64,000 nt of DNA from an uncultured Gemmatimonadales bacterium (GTDB taxonomy: Bacteria; Gemmatimonadota; Gemmatimonadetes; Gemmatimonadales; Gemmatimonadaceae). The position numbers and the translations under genes are program-made. The stretch lies in assembly GCA_963701965.1 (NCBI GenBank), contig OY969695.1, positions 3,360,001 through 3,424,000 of the forward strand. The letters run 5' to 3'. Below, in pieces: positions 16,989 through 58,820 of the stretch. The notes under the pieces were generated by a model. The model had not been told where the DNA came from. It saw nothing but the letters and a program-made list of their open reading frames with translations, and made no database searches. Positions within the stretch are counted from its first letter, which is position 1; the number at the start of each line of letters is the position of its first letter.

Positions 16989-18370
16989 ACGTCGAATTCT
17001 CCGGCGCCGCACAAGAAGTCACAGGGTCATGCCACATTCTGCGGGTGGCGGGACGCACTGTGCTCTTGGATTGCGGGATGTTCCAGGGCCACCGCCTGGA
17101 AGCCGATGCCAAGAACCGGCGCGTGCCGGTCCCGGTGGCGACCATCGACGCGATCGTCGTGTCGCACGCGCATCTCGATCACACGGGACGTCTGCCCTAT
17201 CTGGTGCACCAGGGCTACGCGGGTCCCATCTTCACGACGGCGGCCACGCGCGATATCTCGGTGGCACTGCTCGCCGACAGCGCGCACATCCAGGAGAGCG
17301 ACGCCGCGCACATCCAACGGCACGGGCGGGAGGCCGTCCAACCGCTCTACGACTCGAATGACGCGTCGCGCACCATCGAGCGCATGCAGCCGCGTCCGCT
17401 GGACGAATGGTTCGACGTCGTGCCCGGCCTACGCGCGCGCTACGGCGAGGCGGGGCATATCCTGGGCTCGGCGTCGGTGACGCTCGAGGCGACCGAACAA
17501 GGGGCCACGCGCCGGCTCATCTTCTCCGGCGACATTGGACGCTGGGGCCTCTCGATCATTCGCGATCCGGTGGCGCCGTCCGATGGCGCGCACATGGTCA
17601 TCATGGAGTCGACGTACGGGGACCGGGACCACGAGAGCGTGGCCCAGGCCCAGGAGCGCCTGGGCGATGTCGTGCGGGCGACGGCGGCGCGCGGCGGGCG
17701 CATCATGATTCCGGCGTTCGCGCTCGGCCGGGCGCAGGAGTTGATCTACGATCTGCACGCGCTGGCCCGCGCCGGCCGGATCCCGCACATCCCGATCGTC
17801 ATCGACAGCCCGCTGGCGAGCGCCGTCACCACGGTGTTCGAGAAGCATCCGGAACTCTACGACCGGACCGAGTCGATGGTCCGCGATGTGCCGCAGTTGT
17901 TCCAGTTCGACATGCTCCGCTACACCCACAGTACCGAGGAGTCCAAGGCGCTCAATACCGAGACCGTGCCGATGGTGATCATCGCCGGATCGGGCATGGC
18001 GGACTCGGGTCGCATTCTGCACCATCTGCTCCACGGCGCATCCGATCCCCGCAACACGGTACTCATCGTCGGATTCCAGGCCGAGCATACCATCGGGCGC
18101 CGCATCGTCGAGCACCGACCGACGCTCAAGATCTTCGACCAGCACGTGCCGCTCCGCGCCCAGGTCGAAGTCCTGAACGGGTACAGTGCCCACGCCGACC
18201 GCACCGAGCTGGCGAAGTGGCTCGACGCGGTGCACGCTGGCGCGCCGCAGTTGGCGCGCGTTTGCCTGGTGCATGGCGAGCCGCAGGCCCAGACATCGCT
18301 GATGGAGCGGTTCGCCGCCAAGGGGTACAAGGTGACCAACCCCGCGCCCGGTACCAAAATCGACGTTTAG
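16985..18370 (+). CDS. beta-CASP metallo-beta-lactamase-fold RNase
   Basis: GTGA overlap with USP; GAAQEVTGS, LDCGMFQG, SHAHLDHTG, AGHILGS, MESTYG, SAHAD, LVHGE. Confidence 0.93.
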   Translation: MNVEFSGAAQEVTGSCHILRVAGRTVLLDCGMFQGHRLEADAKNRRVPVPVATIDAIVVSHAHLDHTGRLPYLVHQGYAGPIFTTAATRDISVALLADSAHIQESDAAHIQRHGREAVQPLYDSNDASRTIERMQPRPLDEWFDVVPGLRARYGEAGHILGSASVTLEATEQGATRRLIFSGDIGRWGLSIIRDPVAPSDGAHMVIMESTYGDRDHESVAQAQERLGDVVRATAARGGRIMIPAFALGRAQELIYDLHALARAGRIPHIPIVIDSPLASAVTTVFEKHPELYDRTESMVRDVPQLFQFDMLRYTHSTEESKALNTETVPMVIIAGSGMADSGRILHHLLHGASDPRNTVLIVGFQAEHTIGRRIVEHRPTLKIFDQHVPLRAQVEVLNGYSAHADRTELAKWLDAVHAGAPQLARVCLVHGEPQAQTSLMERFAAKGYKVTNPAPGTKIDV

Positions 18371-18440
18371 CAGGGTGCCGAAAGAACGCACGCCTGCTAA
18401 ACGCGTCGGTTGAACTGAGCTCCGCCGCGCGGAGCTCTAA
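18367..18440. repeat. Two-hairpin REP/MITE-like intergenic element, copy 1
   Basis: Homologous to the reverse complement of 51353-51427; shares GTCGGTTGAACTGAGCTCCGC.GCGCGGAGCTCTA. Confidence 0.8.
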
Positions 18441-38782: not shown

Positions 38783-41002
38783 ATGCCCATCCGGCCGTCA
38801 TACCGCGCGGCGGGAGCAGCCGCGTGCGCCCTCTTCGCGCTGTACGTGGCGACTTTGCTCCCGTCGACCGCGATGTGGGACACGAGCGAGTACCTGACGG
38901 CGGCCCACGTGCTCGGGATCCCGCACCCGCCGGGGAACCCGTTCTTCGTCCTCATCGGCCACGTCTTCTCCCTGCTGCCCGTCGCGCCCACCATCGCGCA
39001 ACGCGTCAACCTGATGGCCGCGCTCACCAGCGCACTCTCGGCCGGCGCCTGGTTTCTGGTCACCGAACGCGTCCTCGCGCACTGGCTGCCGAAACCGTGG
39101 CAACGGCTGGCCGGCGCCACCGTGGCGGTCCTTGTCGGCGGCACGGCTTTCACGGTCTGGAGCCAATCCGTCGTCAACGAAAAGGTCTACACGGTCTCAC
39201 TCCTGTTCTTCGCGATCGTCGCCTGGCTCGTCATCCTGTGGTCGGACGACCCGGATGCCCCAGGCGCCGAGCGACTCCTCGTCCTCAGCGTTTTCCTGAT
39301 CGCCCTCGGCTACACCAACCACCCCGCGGGCTTCCTCGTCGCTCCTGCCGTCGCGGTCGCGATCCTCGCCCGCCGCGCGCGCCTGCTCGTCGATCCCCGC
39401 TTCCTCGGCAAATGCGCCGCCGTGTTCGCGCTCGGCCTCACGCCTTTTCTGTTCGAGCCCATCCGCGCCGGCAACCTCCCGGCGCTCAACGAAGGCGAAA
39501 CGACGGCCTGCACGACCCACTTCGCGTGGAACTGCACGCTGACGCCTGAGACCTGGGACCGGTTCCGCGACCAAGTCACGCGCAAACAATACGGCGGCCA
39601 TGAGCTCGTGGAGCGGCAAGCGCCGTTCACCGGCCAGATCGCGATGTACTGGATGTACTTCAAGTGGCAGTGGATGCGCGACGTCACTGGCGCGCACCCC
39701 GGACTCCAGAGCGGCCTCGCCGCGCTCTTCCTGATGCTCGCGCTTCTCGGCGGCTACGCGCACTGGCGACACGACCGGGCCAGCTTCTGGTTTTTCGGGT
39801 CACTCGTGTTCACCGTGACGCTGGCGCTCGTCTACTATCTCAACTTCAAGTACGGCTACTCCCAGGACCCGTCGCTCGGCGAACGCGAAGTCCGCGACCG
39901 CGACTATTTCTACCTGTGGAGCTTCAGCGCGATGAGCGTCTGGATCGCGCTCGGCCTCGTCACACTATGGGAAACCTGTGCAACGCTCCGCGTTGCCAGG
40001 TCCCCAGTCGGTTGGACAGATCTCGGCTCCGCCCAGATCCTGGGCGCCGGTCGCCGTTGGCTCGCGGCTTCGCCGGTGCTGCTCCTCGCCGGCGTGCCGT
40101 TCGTCGCCAACTTCCACGCTGCCCCGCGCGCCGAGCAGGTCGTCACCCGCGATGTCGCCATCGACCTCCTGAACTCGGTGGAACCCTACGGCATTCTGGT
40201 CACCGGCGGCGACAATGATCTCTTCCCGCTCTGGTACGCCCAGGAGGTAGAAGGCGTCCGGCGCGACGTGCTGTGCGTCACCACGTCGCTGCTCGGCACC
40301 GAGTGGTACGCCGGGCAGCTGCTCCGGCGTCCGGTGTACCCGTACGACGCGGCGCACGGACCCGCGGCCTATCGCGGCCGCCTGTGGCCCAAGCCCACCC
40401 GGCCGCTGTTCACGATGTCGCTTGCCGACACCCGACACGTGCCGGACTTCGTGCCGCTGGCCCAGGCGGTGACGTTCCACAAGCCCGGCACCGCCCTCGT
40501 CGCCACGGTGGATCCGAAACGATTGCCATTCGGCGGCCTGACCCGCGCCAATGTGTTCGTGCTGCACATGATCGCCGACGGCAGCGAACGGCCCGTCTAC
40601 ATCAGCACGACCTATGGGAACTACGGATCGACGCTGGGCTTGGACTCGCATCTCCTCACGCAGGGGTTCGCTCGCAAGGTCGTCGACGACACGCCCGTCG
40701 CCACGCGCGACACGGTCATGGTGCCCAGCGACGGATGGATGGACACCAGCCGCTCCAACGCGCTGTGGCGCGAGGCGCGCGGACCGGCGACGATCGTCCG
40801 GCATACCGGCTGGAGCGATCCCGCGTCGGTGGGCATGCCGTTGCTCTACGTGTTCCGTGGCTACGCGCTGGCCGAGGCCCTGTCAGTCCGGCACGAGCCT
40901 GGCGACGACCAGCAGGTCAACGCCGTCATGCAACAGCTTCATGGTATGGCCAACGCCCTGGGCGCGAACGATCTGTTTTCTCCACGGGCCAGCAGTCGCT
41001 GA
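38783..41002 (+). CDS. DUF2723 / TMEM260-like GT-C membrane glycosyltransferase
   Basis: WD.SEY...A..LGIPHPPG.P.F, VNEKVY, REVRDRDYFY, GDNDLFPLWY.QEVEG.R.DV. Confidence 0.9.
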   Translation: MPIRPSYRAAGAAACALFALYVATLLPSTAMWDTSEYLTAAHVLGIPHPPGNPFFVLIGHVFSLLPVAPTIAQRVNLMAALTSALSAGAWFLVTERVLAHWLPKPWQRLAGATVAVLVGGTAFTVWSQSVVNEKVYTVSLLFFAIVAWLVILWSDDPDAPGAERLLVLSVFLIALGYTNHPAGFLVAPAVAVAILARRARLLVDPRFLGKCAAVFALGLTPFLFEPIRAGNLPALNEGETTACTTHFAWNCTLTPETWDRFRDQVTRKQYGGHELVERQAPFTGQIAMYWMYFKWQWMRDVTGAHPGLQSGLAALFLMLALLGGYAHWRHDRASFWFFGSLVFTVTLALVYYLNFKYGYSQDPSLGEREVRDRDYFYLWSFSAMSVWIALGLVTLWETCATLRVARSPVGWTDLGSAQILGAGRRWLAASPVLLLAGVPFVANFHAAPRAEQVVTRDVAIDLLNSVEPYGILVTGGDNDLFPLWYAQEVEGVRRDVLCVTTSLLGTEWYAGQLLRRPVYPYDAAHGPAAYRGRLWPKPTRPLFTMSLADTRHVPDFVPLAQAVTFHKPGTALVATVDPKRLPFGGLTRANVFVLHMIADGSERPVYISTTYGNYGSTLGLDSHLLTQGFARKVVDDTPVATRDTVMVPSDGWMDTSRSNALWREARGPATIVRHTGWSDPASVGMPLLYVFRGYALAEALSVRHEPGDDQQVNAVMQQLHGMANALGANDLFSPRASSR
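39969..40044 (+). repeat. Single in-frame copy of the 62-bp array element inside the DUF2723 gene
   Basis: 22-nt exact match GTCGGTTGGACAGATCTCGGCT (40007-40028) plus homologous flanking hairpins. Confidence 0.85.
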
Positions 41003-42436: not shown

Positions 42437-42844
42437 TCAACGGCGCTTCTTTCCCTTGTTCGGGCGCCGAGAGGGCGGGAGCGCTGACAACTGCACCCGG
42501 TCGTACGCGCCTCGTTTCGCGTCTTCTGGATGCGGCTCCAATCCGATAACGGTGACTTGGCCACGGTCGGGACCGTAGACCCAGAACAGGCGTCCGGCAC
42601 CAGGCGTGTTGTTCTCAATGTATGACTCGAAGACCTTCTGGCCAAAGCGTTTGGTCAGCTCGGCAATCTCGTGGCTCTGAAGGCCCGGGTGATAGGGGTT
42701 CTCCGCCAAATGTCCGAGCGCCCTGGCGAATCGCTTCGCAAAGGCGCGTTCGGGCTTCGTAAGGGAATCATCCCTCAATCCGTCCATGAGATAGCGCCAG
42801 ATCTTCTCGAGTCCTGGCACACCCGGCATTACCTCGAACCTCAT
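42437..42844 (-). CDS. Putative RelE/ParE-superfamily type II toxin
   Basis: A...L..NP.HPGL.SHEI, FESY.ENNTPGAGRLFW.YGP...T...LEPHP; basic protein lying downstream of a small gene. Confidence 0.6.
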   Translation of the reverse strand: MRFEVMPGVPGLEKIWRYLMDGLRDDSLTKPERAFAKRFARALGHLAENPYHPGLQSHEIAELTKRFGQKVFESYIENNTPGAGRLFWVYGPDRGQVTVIGLEPHPEDAKRGAYDRVQLSALPPSRRPNKGKKRR

Positions 42845-42930
42845 AGCGGCGTAGCAGGCCTCCCCCCGGGGAAACGAAAAAAGCGACGCTGATCGGCGCC
42901 GCCCCAACCCTCGCGGACTTTCGAAGTCCG

Positions 42931-43194
42931 CTACTCGTCTTGTTCGACGAGCTTGAGCATGGCGGCCCAATCCAATGACTTGCCGACGCGGCCTTTCGCG
43001 AAGTTCTCCATCGCCTCGTCCATCTGATCGAGCGTGGCCAGCGAGACTGTGGGATCCGCTAGCACACGCGGATACAGCTCGATATGACCATCGCTGAACA
43101 GTTTGGCGTGGTAGTGCTCGAACGCCGCGGGCTGAATCGTGAAGCGCTTTCGTGGATCGCGCCTCACGTCAAATTCTTTGATGACAGTGCTCAT
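42931..43194 (-). CDS. Putative AbrB-like antitoxin
   Basis: 87 aa; D.RKRFTI...Y.....DGHIEL.P beta-hairpin-like N-terminus and acidic helical C-terminus. Confidence 0.6.
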   Translation of the reverse strand: MSTVIKEFDVRRDPRKRFTIQPAAFEHYHAKLFSDGHIELYPRVLADPTVSLATLDQMDEAMENFAKGRVGKSLDWAAMLKLVEQDE

Positions 43195-43281: not shown

Positions 43282-43392
43282 CTATTTGGGCTTTCGGGCA
43301 AAACCCACGATCAGCTCGTCGTGCAAGCCGTGATGTCGGGCGAGCCAGGCGCCGAAATCAGCCGGGGTCGGGAAGAACGTCGCCTTCTTTAT
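43282..43392 (-). pseudogene. N-terminal remnant of a YdeI/OmpD-associated family gene
   Basis: Translates as (I)KKATFFPTPADFGAWLARHHGLHDELIVGFARKPK*; begins at ATA overlapping the upstream stop. Confidence 0.65.
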
Positions 43393-43814
43393 GGAAGCCG
43401 GCGTGGCGGATCTCCCTTCGTGAACAGCAGACTAGCGCGCCGACCGTCATACTCGGCCATCACGATGTTGACCTGATCGTCGAACACATCGAACAACGCG
43501 CGCGCCGCGATCGTCATGCCGCTCGGTCCGCGTGGCGCCGCGGTCCGAACACAAAGCCAAAGGACATCGCCCTCCCGCCGCGAGCCACACCAGGTCGTCG
43601 GCAGCGGGCGTCCAGTTTGGTCCGCGAGCGCGATGGTCGCCCGCGCGTACGTCGAGTCGGCCTGATGCGCGCGCGCCAGCGCGCGGCCCAAGTCATCGGC
43701 GAACGCGCGGGTCGTCGCCGTGAGAGATGCTGTGCGGGGATCGTAGCTCAACGTCGTGAGCGTCGTGTGCATCGGATGGAACAGACACGCCAGCACGAGA
43801 CAGGCCACTACCAC
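43389..43814 (-). CDS. DUF6702 family protein
   Basis: HPMHTTLT...F.DD...LFD.FDDQVNIV pattern; coupled to the HupE/UreJ stop. Confidence 0.7.
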   Translation of the reverse strand: MVVACLVLACLFHPMHTTLTTLSYDPRTASLTATTRAFADDLGRALARAHQADSTYARATIALADQTGRPLPTTWCGSRREGDVLWLCVRTAAPRGPSGMTIAARALFDVFDDQVNIVMAEYDGRRASLLFTKGDPPRRLP

Positions 43815-44395
43815 GGCCTGCGCTCCACGGCCCAGCCCGCGGCAACCACGGCCACCACCGTCGACACGGCAATCACCCGCAAGCGGAGTGGAGACGGCGC
43901 GCGGCTGGGGAGGCGGAACGCACCGATGGCCCGGTCGACGGCGGCCAGCGCGACGGCGGCGCTCGCGAGCGCGAGAATCTGACCCAACTCGATCCCGACG
44001 TTGAAGCCAAACAACGGAAGCGCAATGTGATCCACGAACAAGCTGCGCAGATAGTTCGCGAAACCCGCGCCGTGCACGAGACCAAACACGCCCGCGAAGA
44101 CCGCGCGATATCGGCCGCCGTCTTTGGCGAACAGATTCTCGATGCCGGTCAACATGATCGTCACCGGGATCAGGAACTCGATCACCGGCGATGGCAGCGT
44201 GAGCGTGCCCGTCACGGCCAAGGCGAGCGTGATCGAATGTCCTACCGTGAAGGCCGAGACGACCCACAGCGCGCGACGCCAATCGGCCGGACGATAGATC
44301 GCGGCCAGGGCCAGCAGGAACAGGATGTGATCCATCGCGCCAGGATCGACGATATGGCGAAATCCCAGGTGGACGAACGTCAGCCACTCACTCAT
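43808..44395 (-). CDS. HupE/UreJ family membrane protein
   Basis: LGF.HI...DHILFL, AFTVGHSITL, FGLVHG.GFA, FNVGIELGQ. Confidence 0.92.
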   Translation of the reverse strand: MSEWLTFVHLGFRHIVDPGAMDHILFLLALAAIYRPADWRRALWVVSAFTVGHSITLALAVTGTLTLPSPVIEFLIPVTIMLTGIENLFAKDGGRYRAVFAGVFGLVHGAGFANYLRSLFVDHIALPLFGFNVGIELGQILALASAAVALAAVDRAIGAFRLPSRAPSPLRLRVIAVSTVVAVVAAGWAVERRPW

Positions 44396-45692
44396 GAGTC
44401 AGTACGGCCCGCGCACTGTCCGGCTGCGTCGGGTGAAAGTAGGGATTCGTGTCGAGCGCCCGCCGGAGGTAGACCCGCGCCGAGTCGGACCGGCCTTGGG
44501 CGCGCGCGATCATGCCGGCGTGGTAAAAGAGCAGCGCATCCTGGGTACCCTGGCTGAGCGCACGCGTCATGGCGCGCGCGGCTTCGGGATAGCGGCCGTT
44601 CCGGTAGAGCGCCCACGCCAGCACATCGTAGCCGTAGATGTCGCGGCGGGTGCGAAGCTCTTGGCGGGCCTTCCCCAGCACTTCCGGCACACGGCGCGCG
44701 TGGTCCAGCAGAAACAGGCTCCAGGCCCGATGATAGGCGCCCGGTTGCTGGGAGACGGCCACCTCCATCGCATGCGCATAGGCGTTGGCCTGCACCGTGT
44801 CGCCGAGCGCCAGGTAACAGTCGCTCACGGTGCCGAGCGTGGCGGGATCGAGGACCGCGGCGATCGCGCGATCGCCATCAGCGATCGCGGCGCGCCATTC
44901 GTGGCGCACCGCGTGCAGATGCGACAAGGCGGCGGCGATCCGATAGTCGTCCGGGTGGGCCGCGAGACCCAAGCGATACTCGCGTTCGGCCGTGTCGGGT
45001 TGCCCCATGCGCAGCGCCAGGTCGCCGAGTCGGAGCCGGAACCAGGCGCGTTGCTCGCTCGGCAGATCCGTGCGGGCTTGGGCGGCGGCGATCGCGTGTT
45101 GGAGTAGCGAGCGCGCTGTGGCCGGATGCCCCTCGATCTCCTCCCATCGCGCCAGCCGCGGCGCCACGGAGAGACTCCGCGCCTGCGTGCGGAGCGAGTC
45201 GAACGTGCGGCGCGCTTCGTCGTATCGTCCCAACTCGACCGCGATCTCGCCCGCCATCGCCCGGTACGACACGCGCTCCGGGTCCAGCGCGGTCAGTCCC
45301 CGAGTGACGTCGAGGGCTTCGGCGAACCGGTGCTCCGACAGCAGCGCCGAGGCCAGCACTTGCGCGGCCAGCGCATTGCGGGACAGCCGGTTGTGGAGCG
45401 ACCGGCGCGCCGCGCTATCGGCGCGGAGCACGTCCTCGTAGTGGCCCGTCTCCCGGCTCCGCGCCAAATACAGTTGTGCCGCGCGGGCCAGGTCCATGGC
45501 CCCGGTCGGATCGCGCCGGGCGCGCGCCTCGTAGAAGGCGATGTCGAGATCGCGCGTTTCGGCCTCGCTGTGGACGGGCCCCAGCGCGTACAGCGGTGGT
45601 GATGGCGGCGGAGAGCGCCGGGCCGCGTAGGCGTACGTGCTGCCCGCCAACGCCGCCACGGCGACGGCGGGCAGCACGAGACGGGGGCGCAT
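44388..45692 (-). CDS. Tetratricopeptide repeat protein
   Basis: TGATG coupling to the upstream gene; RETG, H.F..A, ELGRYDEA, D.LAWALY..G, YHAGMI. Confidence 0.88.
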   Translation of the reverse strand: MRPRLVLPAVAVAALAGSTYAYAARRSPPPSPPLYALGPVHSEAETRDLDIAFYEARARRDPTGAMDLARAAQLYLARSRETGHYEDVLRADSAARRSLHNRLSRNALAAQVLASALLSEHRFAEALDVTRGLTALDPERVSYRAMAGEIAVELGRYDEARRTFDSLRTQARSLSVAPRLARWEEIEGHPATARSLLQHAIAAAQARTDLPSEQRAWFRLRLGDLALRMGQPDTAEREYRLGLAAHPDDYRIAAALSHLHAVRHEWRAAIADGDRAIAAVLDPATLGTVSDCYLALGDTVQANAYAHAMEVAVSQQPGAYHRAWSLFLLDHARRVPEVLGKARQELRTRRDIYGYDVLAWALYRNGRYPEAARAMTRALSQGTQDALLFYHAGMIARAQGRSDSARVYLRRALDTNPYFHPTQPDSARAVLTHE

Positions 45693-46243
45693 CAGTGCGG
45701 GTTCCCCACATACGGGAACGTTGTCTGGTAGTCCGTGTGCGGCGGGACGTTGTCGTTGCACAGCGCCGGGCAGCTGTTGCCCGCGGTCTCGATCAGCGTG
45801 CCGAAGATCGCGTCGAGACCCGCGGCCACGACGTCGTCATTGAGCTTCCGGCCGCCGTAGCCGTTGGCCAGCGCCCACGTGAGCCAACCGGCACCGGCCG
45901 GGTCCTTGTCGGTCTGGACGATGAGCATGTCGGGCAGGAGCACCGCGGCGAGGGTGTTCTGCACCGTCGTGTCGCGGCCCGCGACCGTGGCGACGAAGTT
46001 CTTGAACTCCGCCTCGATGATGGTGTCTTGGGCCGGCCCGAGGGAGCCGTGGGTGGGGTGACTGCGTTTGGCAAGGAACACTTCGCTGACCAACGGATTG
46101 CCCAGGCGTTGCACTTGGTCGAACATGCGGGTCGAGGTCGACGGGCCGGTCGTTGAATTGGACCCGTTGTTGTCGTCGCTGCACGCGGCGACGGTCATGA
46201 TCGTGGCGACCGCGGCCACGAGACACAGAGCTCGGCGAGACAT
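45692..46243 (-). CDS. DUF4331 family lipoprotein (resembles the C-terminal half)
   Basis: Lipobox VAAC; QV.RLGNPLVSE, LLPDML, GGRKL.DDV, FPY...H. Confidence 0.8.
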   Translation of the reverse strand: MSRRALCLVAAVATIMTVAACSDDNNGSNSTTGPSTSTRMFDQVQRLGNPLVSEVFLAKRSHPTHGSLGPAQDTIIEAEFKNFVATVAGRDTTVQNTLAAVLLPDMLIVQTDKDPAGAGWLTWALANGYGGRKLNDDVVAAGLDAIFGTLIETAGNSCPALCNDNVPPHTDYQTTFPYVGNPH

Positions 46244-46269
46244 TGCTATAGTCCTCTCGTGGTGTAAGG

Positions 46270-47004
46270 TCAGCGGCTGATCGTGCCCCAGAGGCCGATC
46301 TTGGCGTTGCCGCCGGCGGTCAACATCGATGTCGGCAGCTCGACGACGATCGACAGCACGTTGTGGCCGGCGACGAAATCGACGCCCGGGTTGCGGAAGC
46401 TCGTCGCTGACGGCGTGTTCGGGAGTTGCGACAACGTGCCGGTGACGGGTTTCCGGTCGGGCAGAATGCGGAAGAATTGCTCGAGGTCGATGAAGAACGG
46501 GTCGCTGCGCGGGCCGGCAAAGAGTTGGATGCCGGACGCGGTGCCCAAGACCGTGTTGACCTTGCCGGTCAGGACGGGCGTGCCGGTCGAGATCGTGTTC
46601 TGCATCGCGCCGACGACCGGCGGTTTGATCGGGCCCCACAGTGAGACCGTCTGGTTGGCGCCGGTGCCGCTGAACGTCACCTGCATCACCAGGTCTTCCT
46701 TGGCGTCGCCGGTGTTGTCGATCTTGAACTGGTACAGGAGGTTGGGATCGAACGATGTGCTCGCCGTCGAAGCCGGCGTCAGGAACGCCCAGCTGTCGAG
46801 GACGAGCGCGATCCGTCCGGCGGCCGAGCCGGGGAACGCGTAGAAGTCGGTCATGTCTGTCGCCGGGTTGAGCTCGACGTCAGGGCTGTCCTGATGGTCG
46901 GAGCCAAGCGCGTGGCGTGTGGCGAGCCCGCCGGCGACGAGGGCGACGAGCAGGCCAGCCGTGAGCAGGCGTGGCCGGGAAAGCAACGTACGGGCGTAGC
47001 GCAT
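46270..47004 (-). CDS. DUF4331 family secreted protein (resembles the N-terminal half)
   Basis: GGAGG RBS; SDH.D.P, D.TDFYAF, Y.FKIDN.GD, FAGPR.DPFF.DL, NVLSIVVELP, W.TISR. Confidence 0.85.
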   Translation of the reverse strand: MRYARTLLSRPRLLTAGLLVALVAGGLATRHALGSDHQDSPDVELNPATDMTDFYAFPGSAAGRIALVLDSWAFLTPASTASTSFDPNLLYQFKIDNTGDAKEDLVMQVTFSGTGANQTVSLWGPIKPPVVGAMQNTISTGTPVLTGKVNTVLGTASGIQLFAGPRSDPFFIDLEQFFRILPDRKPVTGTLSQLPNTPSATSFRNPGVDFVAGHNVLSIVVELPTSMLTAGGNAKIGLWGTISR

Positions 47005-47049: not shown

Positions 47050-47076
47050 TACGCCGCTCATCGCACCGCGGATCTG
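47050..47076 (-). promoter_or_regulatory. Putative ECF (SigK-like) promoter CAGATCC-N16-CGTA
   Basis: -35 at 47076-47070 and -10 CGTA at 47053-47050, about 45 nt upstream of the DUF4331 start. Confidence 0.55.
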
Positions 47077-47600
47077 TGCGATGCTTCGCATTGCCAGATC
47101 CGTCGTCGGTTGGACAGATCTCGGCTGCGCCGAGATCCCGCGATGCTTCACGTCGCCAGATCCGTCGTCGGTTGGACAGATCTCGGCTGCGCCGAGATCC
47201 CGCGATGCTTCACGTCGCCAGATCCGTCGTCGGTTGGACAGATCTGGGCTGCGCCGAGATCCCGCGATGCTTCACGTCGCCAGATCCGTCGTCGGTTGGA
47301 CAGATCTCGGCTGCGCCGAGATCCCGCGATGCTTCACGTCGCCAGATCCGTCGTCGGTTGGACAGATCTGGGCTGCGCCGAGATCCCGCGATGCTTCACG
47401 TCGCCAGATCCGTCGTCGGTTGGACAGATCTGGGCTGCGCCGAGATCCCGCGCCGCTTCACGTCGCCAGGATCCGTCGTCGGGTTGGACAGATCTCGGCT
47501 GCGCCGAGATCCCGCGATGCTTCACGTCGCCAGATCACGCGTCCGTTGGACCTATCCCAACTCCGCCGAGATCTCGCAATGCGAAGCGTTGCTGAGATCC
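47070..47600. repeat. 62-bp structured tandem repeat array (7 near-identical units + 1 degenerate) with ~32-bp terminal inverted repeats
   Basis: Unit GCCAGATCCGTCGTCGGTTGGACAGATCT(C/G)GGCTGCGCCGAGATCCCGCGATGCTTCACGTC starts at 47093, 47155, 47217, 47279, 47341, 47403, 47465 and 47529; no spacers. Confidence 0.95.
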
Positions 47601-47628
47601 GTTGGCGCGCGACCATTGTATCGAGACG

Positions 47629-48205
47629 GTGCGATTCACACTCATAGTCGCGTTCGCGACGATCCCGTGTGCGTTACGGGCCCAGGCCGCCGATAGCGCG
47701 AAGAACCATAAACTCGACACTCTTCGTGTCATGGGCCGCGCCAACGATCTGCATGGGATCGCCGGTTCGGCGTCCCAGGGGACTGTGGGCGCCGTCGATC
47801 TTCGTCTCCGCCCACTAGCACGAGAGGGCGAGTTGCTAGAGACCGTCCCGGGGATGATCGTCACCCAGCACTCGGGCCCTCGTGGGTGGCATCACCTGGA
47901 CGCCGCGACCGCGCGGTCTCTTCGCCGCCTTCCGTGTCCGCCGGTTCGGGTCCTATCCCCTGACCCAAGACATATAGTATCCGCGCCGGTTCGACCACGT
48001 TGTGCAACGCCGACGTCGGGTTCCAGTTCGCCGGGGAGTCCGTTTGCAGCTCACGATGCTCAACGTGTTCGATTCCAGGGGCGACGACATTGACTACTAC
48101 TATGTCTCGCGCCTCCCCGGCGAACCGGCGGCCGGCGTCGGCGATCAGCATTTCCATCCCGTCGAACCGCGACAGCTCCGGGTGTCGGTGGCCTGGGGAC
48201 TCTGA
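47629..48205 (+). pseudogene. TonB-dependent receptor remnant (large internal deletion plus frameshifts)
   Basis: Signal peptide and plug start (SASQG.V......RP..R.GELLETVPGMIVTQHSG) joined near 47877 to the C-terminus (N.FD....DIDYYY.SRLPGEP..GV.D.HFHPVEPR..R). Confidence 0.85.
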
Positions 48206-51352: not shown

Positions 51353-51427
51353 CTAGAGCTCCGCGCAGCGGAGCTCAGTTCAACCGACAATGCCCTAGCG
51401 GGGGTGCGTTCTTCAGCACCCCGCTAG
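51353..51427. repeat. Two-hairpin REP/MITE-like intergenic element, copy 2
   Basis: Reverse complement aligns with 18367-18440; bounded by CTAG on both sides. Confidence 0.8.
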
Positions 51428-53223
51428 GGCAACACGTCGATTTCGACGTTCGACGGGGACTTGGCCGTCCGGTAGATCGTGTGTTGCCGCGCCTGATAGT
51501 CCTGGGGTCGCGCCTGGAAGATATTCGGCACGAACGTCTGGGGGTTCCGGTCATATAGCGGGAACCACGTGCTCTGCACCTGCACCATGATGCGGTGGCC
51601 AGCGCGGAACGTGTACGCCTGCTGGTGCAGATCGACCGTATAAGGCTCGACCTGCCCCGGCGGAATCGGCGCCGCGTGCTCGAAGCTCTGGCGATACCGG
51701 CCGCGCATGATGTCCGCCGTGACGATCAATTCGTATCCGCCCATGGTCGGCCGGTCGTCGATCGTGTCGGGATACACGTCGATGAGCTTCACGACCCAGT
51801 CCGCGTCGCTCCCGGTCGTCGCCGCATAGAGATGCGCGACGACGTTGCCCGCGACCGTGAGGTCTTCCGTCAGGGGCGCGGTCTGCCATGTCAACACGTC
51901 CGGGCGTTCGTCGACGAACCGCTGGTCCTCCGTCATCCACCGCCGCCAGCGCGACGTCGCCGAGTACGTCCGTTCGACGGGGCGCGGCCGGTAGGGTACC
52001 GGATGCGTCGGGTCCGAGACGTAGCGATCGGCGCCCGTGTCGGCCTTCGCCGGTGTCATCGACAGCGCGCGGCCCGACCGGAAGTACAGATGCTTGTGCG
52101 CGACACCGGGGGCCGGCCACTGCGCGAACGTGCGCCACGTGTCCGTGCCGCCGTCGAACACCGTGGCCGCCGGCGTCGTGCCGCCGGCCGAGTCGTGGAG
52201 CCAGTGCGCGAACCAGCGCGCTTCCAGCGCGCGGAAGTCGATGCCCGTCGGCCGGCCGAAGCGCGCGTTGCCGAGCGCGATGCCGGAATCACCGGCCCAT
52301 TGTCCGTGGAACCACGGACCCATGACCAATGAGACTTGGTGCGTCGTGTCGGTCCGCGCCAGCGTGCGATAGGTGAGGAGCGGGCCAAACTCGTCCTCTT
52401 GGTCCCACCATCCGCCGACGACCAGCGTCGGAATCGTCGCGTGCGGAAACGTCGTCGCCAACGATCGGCTCTTCCACTCCGCGTCGTAGGCGGGATGGGC
52501 GACGAACCGCTCCCAAGTCGGCCAGGCTGTGGCGCCGACCGATTTGGCCAGCGCGCCCAGCGTCGGATACGAGAGGTACCACTCGTACGTGTCGTACCGC
52601 GCCGGAGACGGCGTGACACTCTGGTCCTTCGACGCTTCCAGGGACCAGGCGTACTCGAGGCCGTACGTCAGGCGAAACGCGCCCTGGTGAAAGAAGTCGT
52701 CGCCAAGCCACGTGTCGGCCATCGGCGCCTGGGGACTGATCGCTTTGAGCGCCGGATGCGCGCCGATGCCCGCGACGGCGGCCAGCCAACCCGGATACGA
52801 GACGCCGTAGATGCCGACGCGTCCCGTGTTATCCGGGACATTGTGAATGAGCCACTCGATCGTGTCGTACGTGTCCGTGCTCTCGTCGGTGCCCGTCGTC
52901 GTCGTCTTCTGCGGCCGGTTCATGACAAAGGATCCCTCGGACTGAAAGCGTCCGCGGATGTCCTGCAACACGAAGATGTAGCCATCGGACACGAAGTCGG
53001 CGCGCCCTTCCGCAAATCGCGCCAGATCCATCGGCCCGCCCACTCCATACGGGGTCCGTGTCATGAGCATGGGCAGCGGGCCGGAGGCCCGCTCGGGGCG
53101 GATGATGACGGTGTAGAGGCGCACGCCGTCGCGCATGGGGATCATCGCGTCGGTCTTGACCAACTGGCCGGGCACCGGGCGCGCCAGCGCGGTGATCGCG
53201 AGCAGAGTGGGGAGGAGTTTCAC
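51424..53223 (-). CDS. CocE/NonD hydrolase (alpha-amino acid ester hydrolase / glutaryl-7-ACA acylase-like)
   Basis: Signal peptide; [56 protein letters not shown]. Confidence 0.93.
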   Translation of the reverse strand: MKLLPTLLAITALARPVPGQLVKTDAMIPMRDGVRLYTVIIRPERASGPLPMLMTRTPYGVGGPMDLARFAEGRADFVSDGYIFVLQDIRGRFQSEGSFVMNRPQKTTTTGTDESTDTYDTIEWLIHNVPDNTGRVGIYGVSYPGWLAAVAGIGAHPALKAISPQAPMADTWLGDDFFHQGAFRLTYGLEYAWSLEASKDQSVTPSPARYDTYEWYLSYPTLGALAKSVGATAWPTWERFVAHPAYDAEWKSRSLATTFPHATIPTLVVGGWWDQEDEFGPLLTYRTLARTDTTHQVSLVMGPWFHGQWAGDSGIALGNARFGRPTGIDFRALEARWFAHWLHDSAGGTTPAATVFDGGTDTWRTFAQWPAPGVAHKHLYFRSGRALSMTPAKADTGADRYVSDPTHPVPYRPRPVERTYSATSRWRRWMTEDQRFVDERPDVLTWQTAPLTEDLTVAGNVVAHLYAATTGSDADWVVKLIDVYPDTIDDRPTMGGYELIVTADIMRGRYRQSFEHAAPIPPGQVEPYTVDLHQQAYTFRAGHRIMVQVQSTWFPLYDRNPQTFVPNIFQARPQDYQARQHTIYRTAKSPSNVEIDVLP

Positions 53224-58491: not shown

Positions 58492-58820
58492 GCCCGAGAT
58501 GTAGTCGTAATCCACGAACGAGCGCCCGGCGATAATTCGTCGCAGGCGGCACTGTCCTCTCAGCCACGGCCCGAGAGGCCATGGTGATCCACCAACGAGC
58601 ACGGCGACACTTCGTGGCAGGCGGGTTGTCCTCTCAGCCACAGCCCGAGAGCTCATGGTGATCCACCAACGAGAGCACGGCGACAATTCGTAGCAGGCGG
58701 CGTTGTCCACTCGGTTTTCAGCCCGAGATGCAGCTGTAATTCACGAACGAGCGCCCGGCGATAATTCGTCGCAGGCGGCCTGCTGTACCGAGACGCCGGA
58801 GACGAATTATCGCCGGGCGC
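58492..58820. repeat. Degenerate ~74-78-bp tandem repeat (4 units, A-B-B-A) ending in a 20-bp inverted repeat
   Basis: Units start GCCCGAGA at 58492, 58569, 58643 and 58721; GCGCCCGGCGATAATTCGTC (58751-58770) is inverted at 58801-58820. Confidence 0.85.

Follow-up and report, generated by a model that had tools for sequence, protein, structure and literature searches.

A genus-specific double-hairpin repeat, likely mobile and non-autonomous, forms a tandem array between two divergent promoters in a Gemmatimonadaceae genome

Introduction

The window analysed here is a 64,000-nt stretch of DNA from an uncultured Gemmatimonadales bacterium (assembly GCA_963701965.1, contig OY969695.1, positions 3,360,001 to 3,424,000). 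Between a DUF4331 operon and the remnant of a TonB-receptor gene, it carries a head-to-tail array of 62-bp units (window positions 47,070 to 47,600), which raises the question of what the unit is and how it came to multiply at this place. The initial annotation, made from the sequence alone, had proposed a MITE/REP-like element that might yield a multi-hairpin RNA or tune operon expression by its copy number. The explanation preferred here, to which a probability of roughly 0.6 is given, is that a single copy of a non-coding repeat with two hairpins, specific to the genus, multiplied head to tail to give the array, and that this repeat is likely a non-autonomous mobile element processed as single-stranded DNA.

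Structure of the array

TRF detects on the forward strand of the window a tandem repeat at 47078..47582, with a period of 62, 8.1 copies, 94% matches and a score of 857. Eight TTGGAC cores (47110 to 47546) mark its units, at successive spacings of 62, 62, 62, 62, 62, 64 and 62 nt; the spacing of 64 results from two additional G within the G-runs of unit 7, which could be long-read errors. As initially described, the units abut without spacers and the last one, unit 8, is degenerate. The lack of unique spacers rules out a CRISPR array.

When folded as DNA, unit 1 forms two hairpins (z -5.2). Hairpin A (47070..47101, + strand) has a bulged stem of 14-15 bp and the loop GC-TTC-GC (GC-GAA-GC when read on the minus strand), and its outer GGATC doubles as the -35 box of the DUF4331 operon. 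It is followed by a conserved single-stranded core, TCGGTTGGAC (47106..47115, + strand), which recurs every 62 nt, and by hairpin B (47117..47137, + strand), with a 9-bp stem and the loop GC-TGC-GC. In units 2-8, hairpin A is degenerate (TTC-A, not TTC-G), and an internal unit folds with a z of -2.1. The array ends with an inverted hairpin A (47569..47600, minus strand), whose terminal GATCC serves the divergent promoter of the TonB-receptor gene as its -35 box. The two end hairpins are indeed inverted copies of each other, matching at 26/32 positions with a TTC loop in one and a GAA loop in the other, and the terminal one has been flipped with both its loop and its bulge.

The C/G variant of hairpin B announced for units 3, 5 and 6 is present in the sequence. 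Such unit variants, and the fact that the family forms arrays elsewhere, speak against an artefact of assembly; the array, as read from the assembly alone, is taken to be real.

Distribution of the repeat family

A genome-wide BLASTN search, combined with motif scans and curated by hand, gave 91 units at 57 dispersed loci of the same genome, 13 of which are head-to-tail arrays with periods of 60-69; in this tally, the array studied here counts as 6 units, units 7 and 8 having altered cores. Both the multicopy, REP-like nature of the element and its tandem expansion, suspected from the single array, are thus confirmed. The unit consists of hairpin A, 2-4 variable bases, TCGGTTG(G/A)AC, one base and hairpin B, and a hairpin follows 71 of the 94 exact TCGGTTG(G/A)AC motifs of the genome. 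The copies are concentrated near the origin, located near dnaA at 2.64 Mb (dnaA is no more than 750 kb away at 26/57 loci; p 0.007).

With one mismatch allowed, the pattern has matches in 5/5 same-genus genomes (1-28 each, one match looking like chance). The exact pattern is absent from 400 other genomes of the class, including one unpublished genome (G012), and the named records bearing the motif are entitled Gemmatimonadales or Gemmatimonadaceae at 7/7 loci. About 30 more copies occur in the related genome G001, where an additional hairpin comes first and the 3' hairpin differs; in most G001 copies (L086-L104), hairpin B has given way to a 3' module of another type, which contains G-runs (on the other strand, GGGGGGTCCGGGGGG). 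TCGGTT is therefore the sole constant part of the element across the genus. Viral contigs gave no match with four patterns, plasmids gave none to the family, and the only phage matches (E 0.8) are at chance level. No description specific to this family was found in the literature surveyed, which for PMC3733652, PMC11602168 (a MITE survey) and PMC7826278 stopped short of the supplements.

Family-related copies also lie beside RNA genes. Two elements in opposite orientation surround a tRNA-Lys gene (positions 345890-346160 of the genome, L001 5890-6160), one of them being followed by a duplicate of the tRNA 3' end, and another copy is located between the 23S and 5S rRNA genes.

Insertions in genes and differences between species

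The repeat is inserted DNA: species differ by the presence or absence of copies, which come and go. The pyk gene contains 63 extra nt that 5/5 orthologues lack, and in the window a single copy (39972..40041, + strand) adds 63 nt in frame to a TMEM260-like gene that has no copy in 4/4 orthologues. In-frame copies lengthen genes such as pyk and hisH by 21-46 codons; hisH carries two units and alkA one. In the relative G003, insertions of 72 nt in adh and of 75 nt in cls occupy sites that are empty both in G001, whose DNA is about 92% identical, and in the genome studied here. At infB-rbfA, the unit is single in G001, double in G003 and missing from this genome. All arrays located within genes (3/3) have a period divisible by 3.

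In-frame copies occur in both orientations. One orientation prevails within genes (15 vs 2, some of the 17 gene calls being doubtful), a bias that is explained in part by top-strand stop codons (18 vs 27 of 33 frames open) and reduced to 9 vs 2 (p 0.065) when only genes with a family match are retained. Copies located between co-directional genes have mixed orientations (15 vs 8).

Two further observations concern single genes. A TMEM260-like paralogue (positions 836538-838724 of the genome) is split over three frames, a hint of long-read indel errors in the assembly. The stop codon of rpsA is occupied by different subfamilies in two species (L188/L228 of G003; position 4812779 of the genome studied here) and empty in three others, which would reflect either independent insertions or an exchange of modules.

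Target sites and the arm matching the flank

Copies of one subfamily have GATC on both sides. The left GATC deviates in 7/21 copies and the right one in 1/21 (Fisher p 0.045), and the deviant left bases of the copy in the TMEM260-like gene are the codons found in its orthologues. As the left GATC deviates more often, it would be the host target and not a duplication; these sequences fit a target that looks like the end of the element itself, with the insertion placed on its 3' side. CGAGATC is found on both flanks of the pyk insertion, and a GATC-type repeat at pyk, hisH and alkA; no duplication is seen at adh or cls. Over the 57 loci of the genome, flanking direct repeats are no longer than expected by chance. 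Among the relatives, the copies L089, L090, L095, L100, L101, L108 and L117 are flanked by direct repeats of 12-25 nt or duplicated together with at most about 100 nt of flank.

The other subfamily starts at TAG, which at 14/57 loci doubles as the stop codon of a reading frame no shorter than 600 nt. The window contains a single copy of this subfamily on a stop codon at 18368..18439 (+ strand), whose inner arm AACG pairs with the gene end CGTT, and another at 51355..51426 (minus strand), on the stop codon of a hydrolase gene (51424-53223), whose inner arm GGGCA pairs with the gene end TGCCC. In the 14 stop-codon copies, the 4 bases following the inner CTA pair with the last 4 bases of the gene at 49/56 positions, with gdh, wrongly anchored in this tally, counting as 0; shuffling the flanks among the copies gives 26 +/- 3.2 (p 2e-5), and 12 distinct 4-mers are involved. 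In 15 copies picked on inner pairing alone, 58/60 positions are paired; position 5 is paired in 9/15 and pairing beyond is at background level. The matched stretches range from 3 to about 15 nt, which alters the length of the linker.

The origin of the left arm varies between loci. It is host-coded at gdh, where 5/5 empty orthologues share the terminal residues and about 15 nt are complemented, at algI, where TTC-stop ends 10/10 homologues, and at the 3' end of a tRNA-Arg gene; in genes for a 72-aa protein and PhzF it agrees with the homologues, which does not prove host coding. At rpsA, the ATC preceding TAG is missing from 4/4 orthologues and was therefore brought by the element. No such arm extension was found in copies of the GATC subfamily (p 0.29), nor does hairpin B show one (p 0.61).

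Two readings of the stop-codon copies remain, a later copying of the flank by template switching or a pairing at integration. According to the part of PMC8604942 consulted, template switching inverts spacers, as in TTC/GAA, and lengthens arms, the latter being also reported in the part of PMC5941160 consulted. The variable matched lengths favour later copying, whereas the persistent bulge, the fixed loop polarity and a pairing window cut off sharply at 4 nt point to a step linked to an enzyme. Pairing at integration could amount to guide-like targeting, in which the bases that immediately follow hairpin A on its 3' side would pair with host bases 5' of the insertion point and either select the site or be rewritten from it at each insertion. 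Both tallies of paired positions, obtained on differently chosen sets, the drop of pairing after position 4-5 and the host-coded arms at gdh, algI and tRNA-Arg speak for it, and so does a geometry like that of the extended pairing engineered in IS608, as described in the consulted part of PMC5934647. However, the absence of extension in the GATC subfamily and at hairpin B, the element-derived ATC at rpsA, the range of matched lengths with its changes of linker length, which suits later copying, and the failure to find an enzyme all weigh against guide-like targeting, which is a tentative and rather unlikely proposal. About as improbable is its fullest form, a natural DNA-guided insertion in which a single-stranded element of 60-75 nt, its inner arm paired with or rewritten from the host flank so that each copy records its target, would be moved by an enzyme outside the known Y1/Y2 families. 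If targeting is true, the family would be a natural counterpart of the re-programmed IS608; if template switching is true, covarying stems in such repeats could not be read as a sign that selection maintains an RNA structure. The flank-matching arm offers a countable and testable handle on the target choice of orphan repeats and on stems that change yet stay paired.

Hairpins made of DNA or of RNA

The covariation of stems noticed between array units extends to the family: among 33 distinct copies, hairpin B is paired in 31-33 at each of its 9 positions, with several pair types. The loops are strand-polar. In the genome studied here, GC-TNC-GC is on the top strand of 35/57 B hairpins and 23/57 A hairpins, and GC-GNA-GC on none; in the relatives, the TNC loop is found in 28/29 B hairpins and 29/29 first hairpins. 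Hairpin A shows a clear left-arm bulge in 12 of the 28 copies with a TNC loop and a long perfect stem in none of them. The consulted part of PMC13037366 describes GCGNAGC as a DNA-specific mini-hairpin, far stabler as DNA than as RNA, which is read by primases and the N4 polymerase. Bulged hairpins are also typical of REPs and IS200/IS605 elements, and TnpA-REP requires a mismatch in the stem for its binding, according to the portion of PMC3333891 used here. Judging from these sequence features, the element likely acts as single-stranded DNA.

The alternative first put forward, a structured RNA kept by selection (an mRNA 3'-end stabilizer, a ribosome stall signal or a small RNA) with an array that tunes the operon, is very improbable. 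It would account for the 14/57 loci on stop codons, for strong folding (z -7.8 as RNA) and for the covarying stems, but it agrees poorly with DNA-type GNA triloops of fixed strand polarity, with the mixed orientations between co-directional genes and with in-frame copies in both orientations. Moreover, neither predicted transcript would include the array, whose position is upstream of both -35 boxes, and searches of Rfam returned a single chance miRNA match for the array (E 0.68, 22 vs 82 bits) and none at gathering score for further copies of the family.

The array and its flanking promoters

The annotation of the neighbourhood holds. Pfam recognizes an operon encoding DUF4331, DUF4331, TPR, HupE/UreJ (HupE_UreJ_2) and DUF6702 proteins (43389..47004, minus strand). 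Its predicted ECF-type promoter, GATCC-N16-CGTA (47050..47074, minus strand; start codon at 47004), which may depend on a SigK-like sigma factor, does overlap the outer stem of the array and is kept upstream of the DUF4331 gene in all 4 orthologous regions, which lack the array (AATCC in one). The same motif occurs in the opposite direction in 3 of these 4 regions. In the window, it corresponds to the predicted promoter GATCC-N16-TGTA (47596..47620, + strand; CGTA in relatives) of the collapsed TonB-receptor gene. This remnant (47632..48202, + strand) has lost about 457 codons and contains one stop and one frameshift; alignment with the 647-aa G001 orthologue retrieves residues 4-80 (window 47632-47877) and 538-647 (47873-48202).

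The array therefore sits between two divergent -35 boxes, both left in place (47070-47074 and 47596-47600). As it lies upstream of an intact -35 box, and relatives possess the promoter without any array, a tuning of the operon by copy number is unlikely to be needed; the promoter being intact, the array is probably near-neutral. The outer GGATC/GATCC are these pre-existing boxes, and this at the array locus only; hence, they do not represent MITE-type terminal inverted repeats, as had been thought, and reading the other 56 loci by eye revealed no inverted terminal hairpin. Genome-wide, GATCC-N16-CGTA precedes genes in 4/57 cases, with no clear enrichment, and the motif does not appear in the main text of PMC7826278, as far as this was covered. 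Elsewhere in the window, two small genes without Pfam match (window 42437-43194) resemble a toxin-antitoxin pair.

Candidate enzymes and proposed course of events

The transposase of the RAYT/IS type expected near the copies did not turn up: Y1 transposases (PF01797) are found in 0/6 genomes of the genus (67-95% complete), with a positive control in 6/14. Y2_Tnp also gave 0/6, but its control was equally silent, so this is no evidence of absence. A regular expression for the HUH motif found nothing, and 20 of the 67 ORFs listed beside metagenome copies include no transposase. DDE_Tnp_1_6 is absent from the 6 genomes, DUF772 detects one broken IS5-like gene without family ends in the genome studied here, and three IS110 genes are all far from any copy. 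Two other candidate mobilizers were discarded, GIY-YIG because both matches are UvrC-like and DUF559 because its single weak match is inside a 1644-aa frame. Orientation is not linked to the direction of replication (29/57, p 1.0), the skew being weak in one half. Positions ~217000-242000 of the genome bring together attC-like sites, IS110 and IS5 remnants and foreign-looking genes, and may be an island or contamination.

From dispersal, presence or absence between species, in-frame insertion, tandem arrays and strand-polar GNA loops, all of them observed, we infer the following course of events. One strand would fold into two GC-GNA-GC hairpins, and this strand would have been cut and pasted, as the anatomy suggests, by an enzyme of the HUH type (RAYT/IS200-like) that has since been lost or escapes recognition. 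Insertion would occur just 3' of a short target that matches the end of the element, namely GATC in one subfamily and TAG in the other, and the target would then become the foot of hairpin A. At the array locus, the target would have been the GGATC -35 box between the two divergent promoters, and the unit could have multiplied there by slippage or rolling-circle-like copying. A template switch of the polymerase would likely have flipped the last hairpin A and would likely also be the source of the arms complementary to the host gene end in stop-codon copies.

Several results count against this expansion of a single-stranded element. No Y1 enzyme, HUH motif, GTAG/CGTC tag or replication-strand bias (29/57) was found. 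Bulges should disappear under template switching and loops should lose their fixed polarity, whereas both features have been retained. Finally, the flanking direct repeats of 12-25 nt in some G001 and metagenome copies are not accounted for by the model.

Relationship to known mobile elements

The family works like REP/BIME elements and Rickettsia palindromic elements (RPEs), but it fails the tag, RAYT and MITE tests and is therefore a variant and not a member. As far as PMC3333891, PMC3733652 and PMC6006769 were covered, REP/BIMEs mobilized by RAYTs share with it short GC-rich hairpins, tens of dispersed copies, compensated stems with a mismatch and tandem clusters that are homogeneous within a locus, variable between strains and sometimes located in genes; the difference between one and two units at infB-rbfA is of this kind. 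In contrast to REP/BIMEs, it consists of two dissimilar hairpins in a fixed polar order and not of inverted dimers, uses host bases as the foot of hairpin A, has no RAYT in 6 genomes and lacks the GTAG/GGAG or CGTC tag, which is found at the 5' foot of hairpin B in 1/57 copies and on the other strand in 2/57 (a comparison made with the consulted text of PMC3733652). RPEs and intragenic REPs, in the account given in part of PMC3733652, also insert in frame into conserved genes, here with 21-46 additional residues in genes for repair (alkA, ogt, lhr) and central metabolism (pyk, hisH). Unlike RPEs as presented in that part, the family is shorter (60-75 nt), has a free-living host and subfamily-specific targets, and also forms arrays within genes. 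It thereby extends REP/RPE behaviour to Gemmatimonadota, with untagged, enzyme-less repeats seen inserting peptides into core enzymes.

The IS200/IS605 elements, exemplified by IS608 in the part of PMC5934647 used, provide a second comparison. They have imperfect hairpins on one strand, a feature that loop polarity and bulge would reproduce here, and an insertion that seems to fall 3' of a short target and to leave no true duplication; in engineered IS608, the sequence 3' of the left hairpin is complementary to that 5' of the target. However, the family has neither a transposase gene nor a replication-strand bias (29/57), its pairing stacks directly on the stem, and a role of this pairing in targeting is a candidate only.

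Bacterial MITEs, as defined in the consulted part of PMC3733652, are likewise non-coding, multicopy sequences of 60-100 nt that are polymorphic between species, but the family lacks their terminal inverted repeats and consistent target duplication. That it is a MITE of a DDE transposase (IS5/IS1182-like) producing GATC or CTAG duplications is very unlikely. CGAGATC on both sides of the pyk insertion and the broken IS5-like gene would suit this idea, as would the left end of the TAG subfamily, which presumably resembles IS5/IS1182 ends. Yet this IS5 remnant has no such ends, no terminal inverted repeats were read by eye at other loci, GATC is asymmetric between left and right, adh and cls show no duplication, and DDE_Tnp_1_6 is at 0/6, the partner having been sought with two Pfam families only. 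A descent from integron attC sites moved by an integron integrase is extremely unlikely: although the core fits GTTRRRY at 49/57 loci and the bulged hairpin would act on one strand, the partner RYYYAAC box is present at 2/57 (background 2.2%), the core varies to GTTCGCC/GTTCTCC in G001, and insertions end outside the hairpins and not at G/TT.

A second, unrelated repeat family is present in the window as a 78-bp tandem (58510-58779). Elsewhere in the genome it appears as inverted GATAATTCGTCGC-type hairpins (positions 1967031, 2612485-2613079, 2617947 and 5059694), and several copies lie beside parA near the origin.
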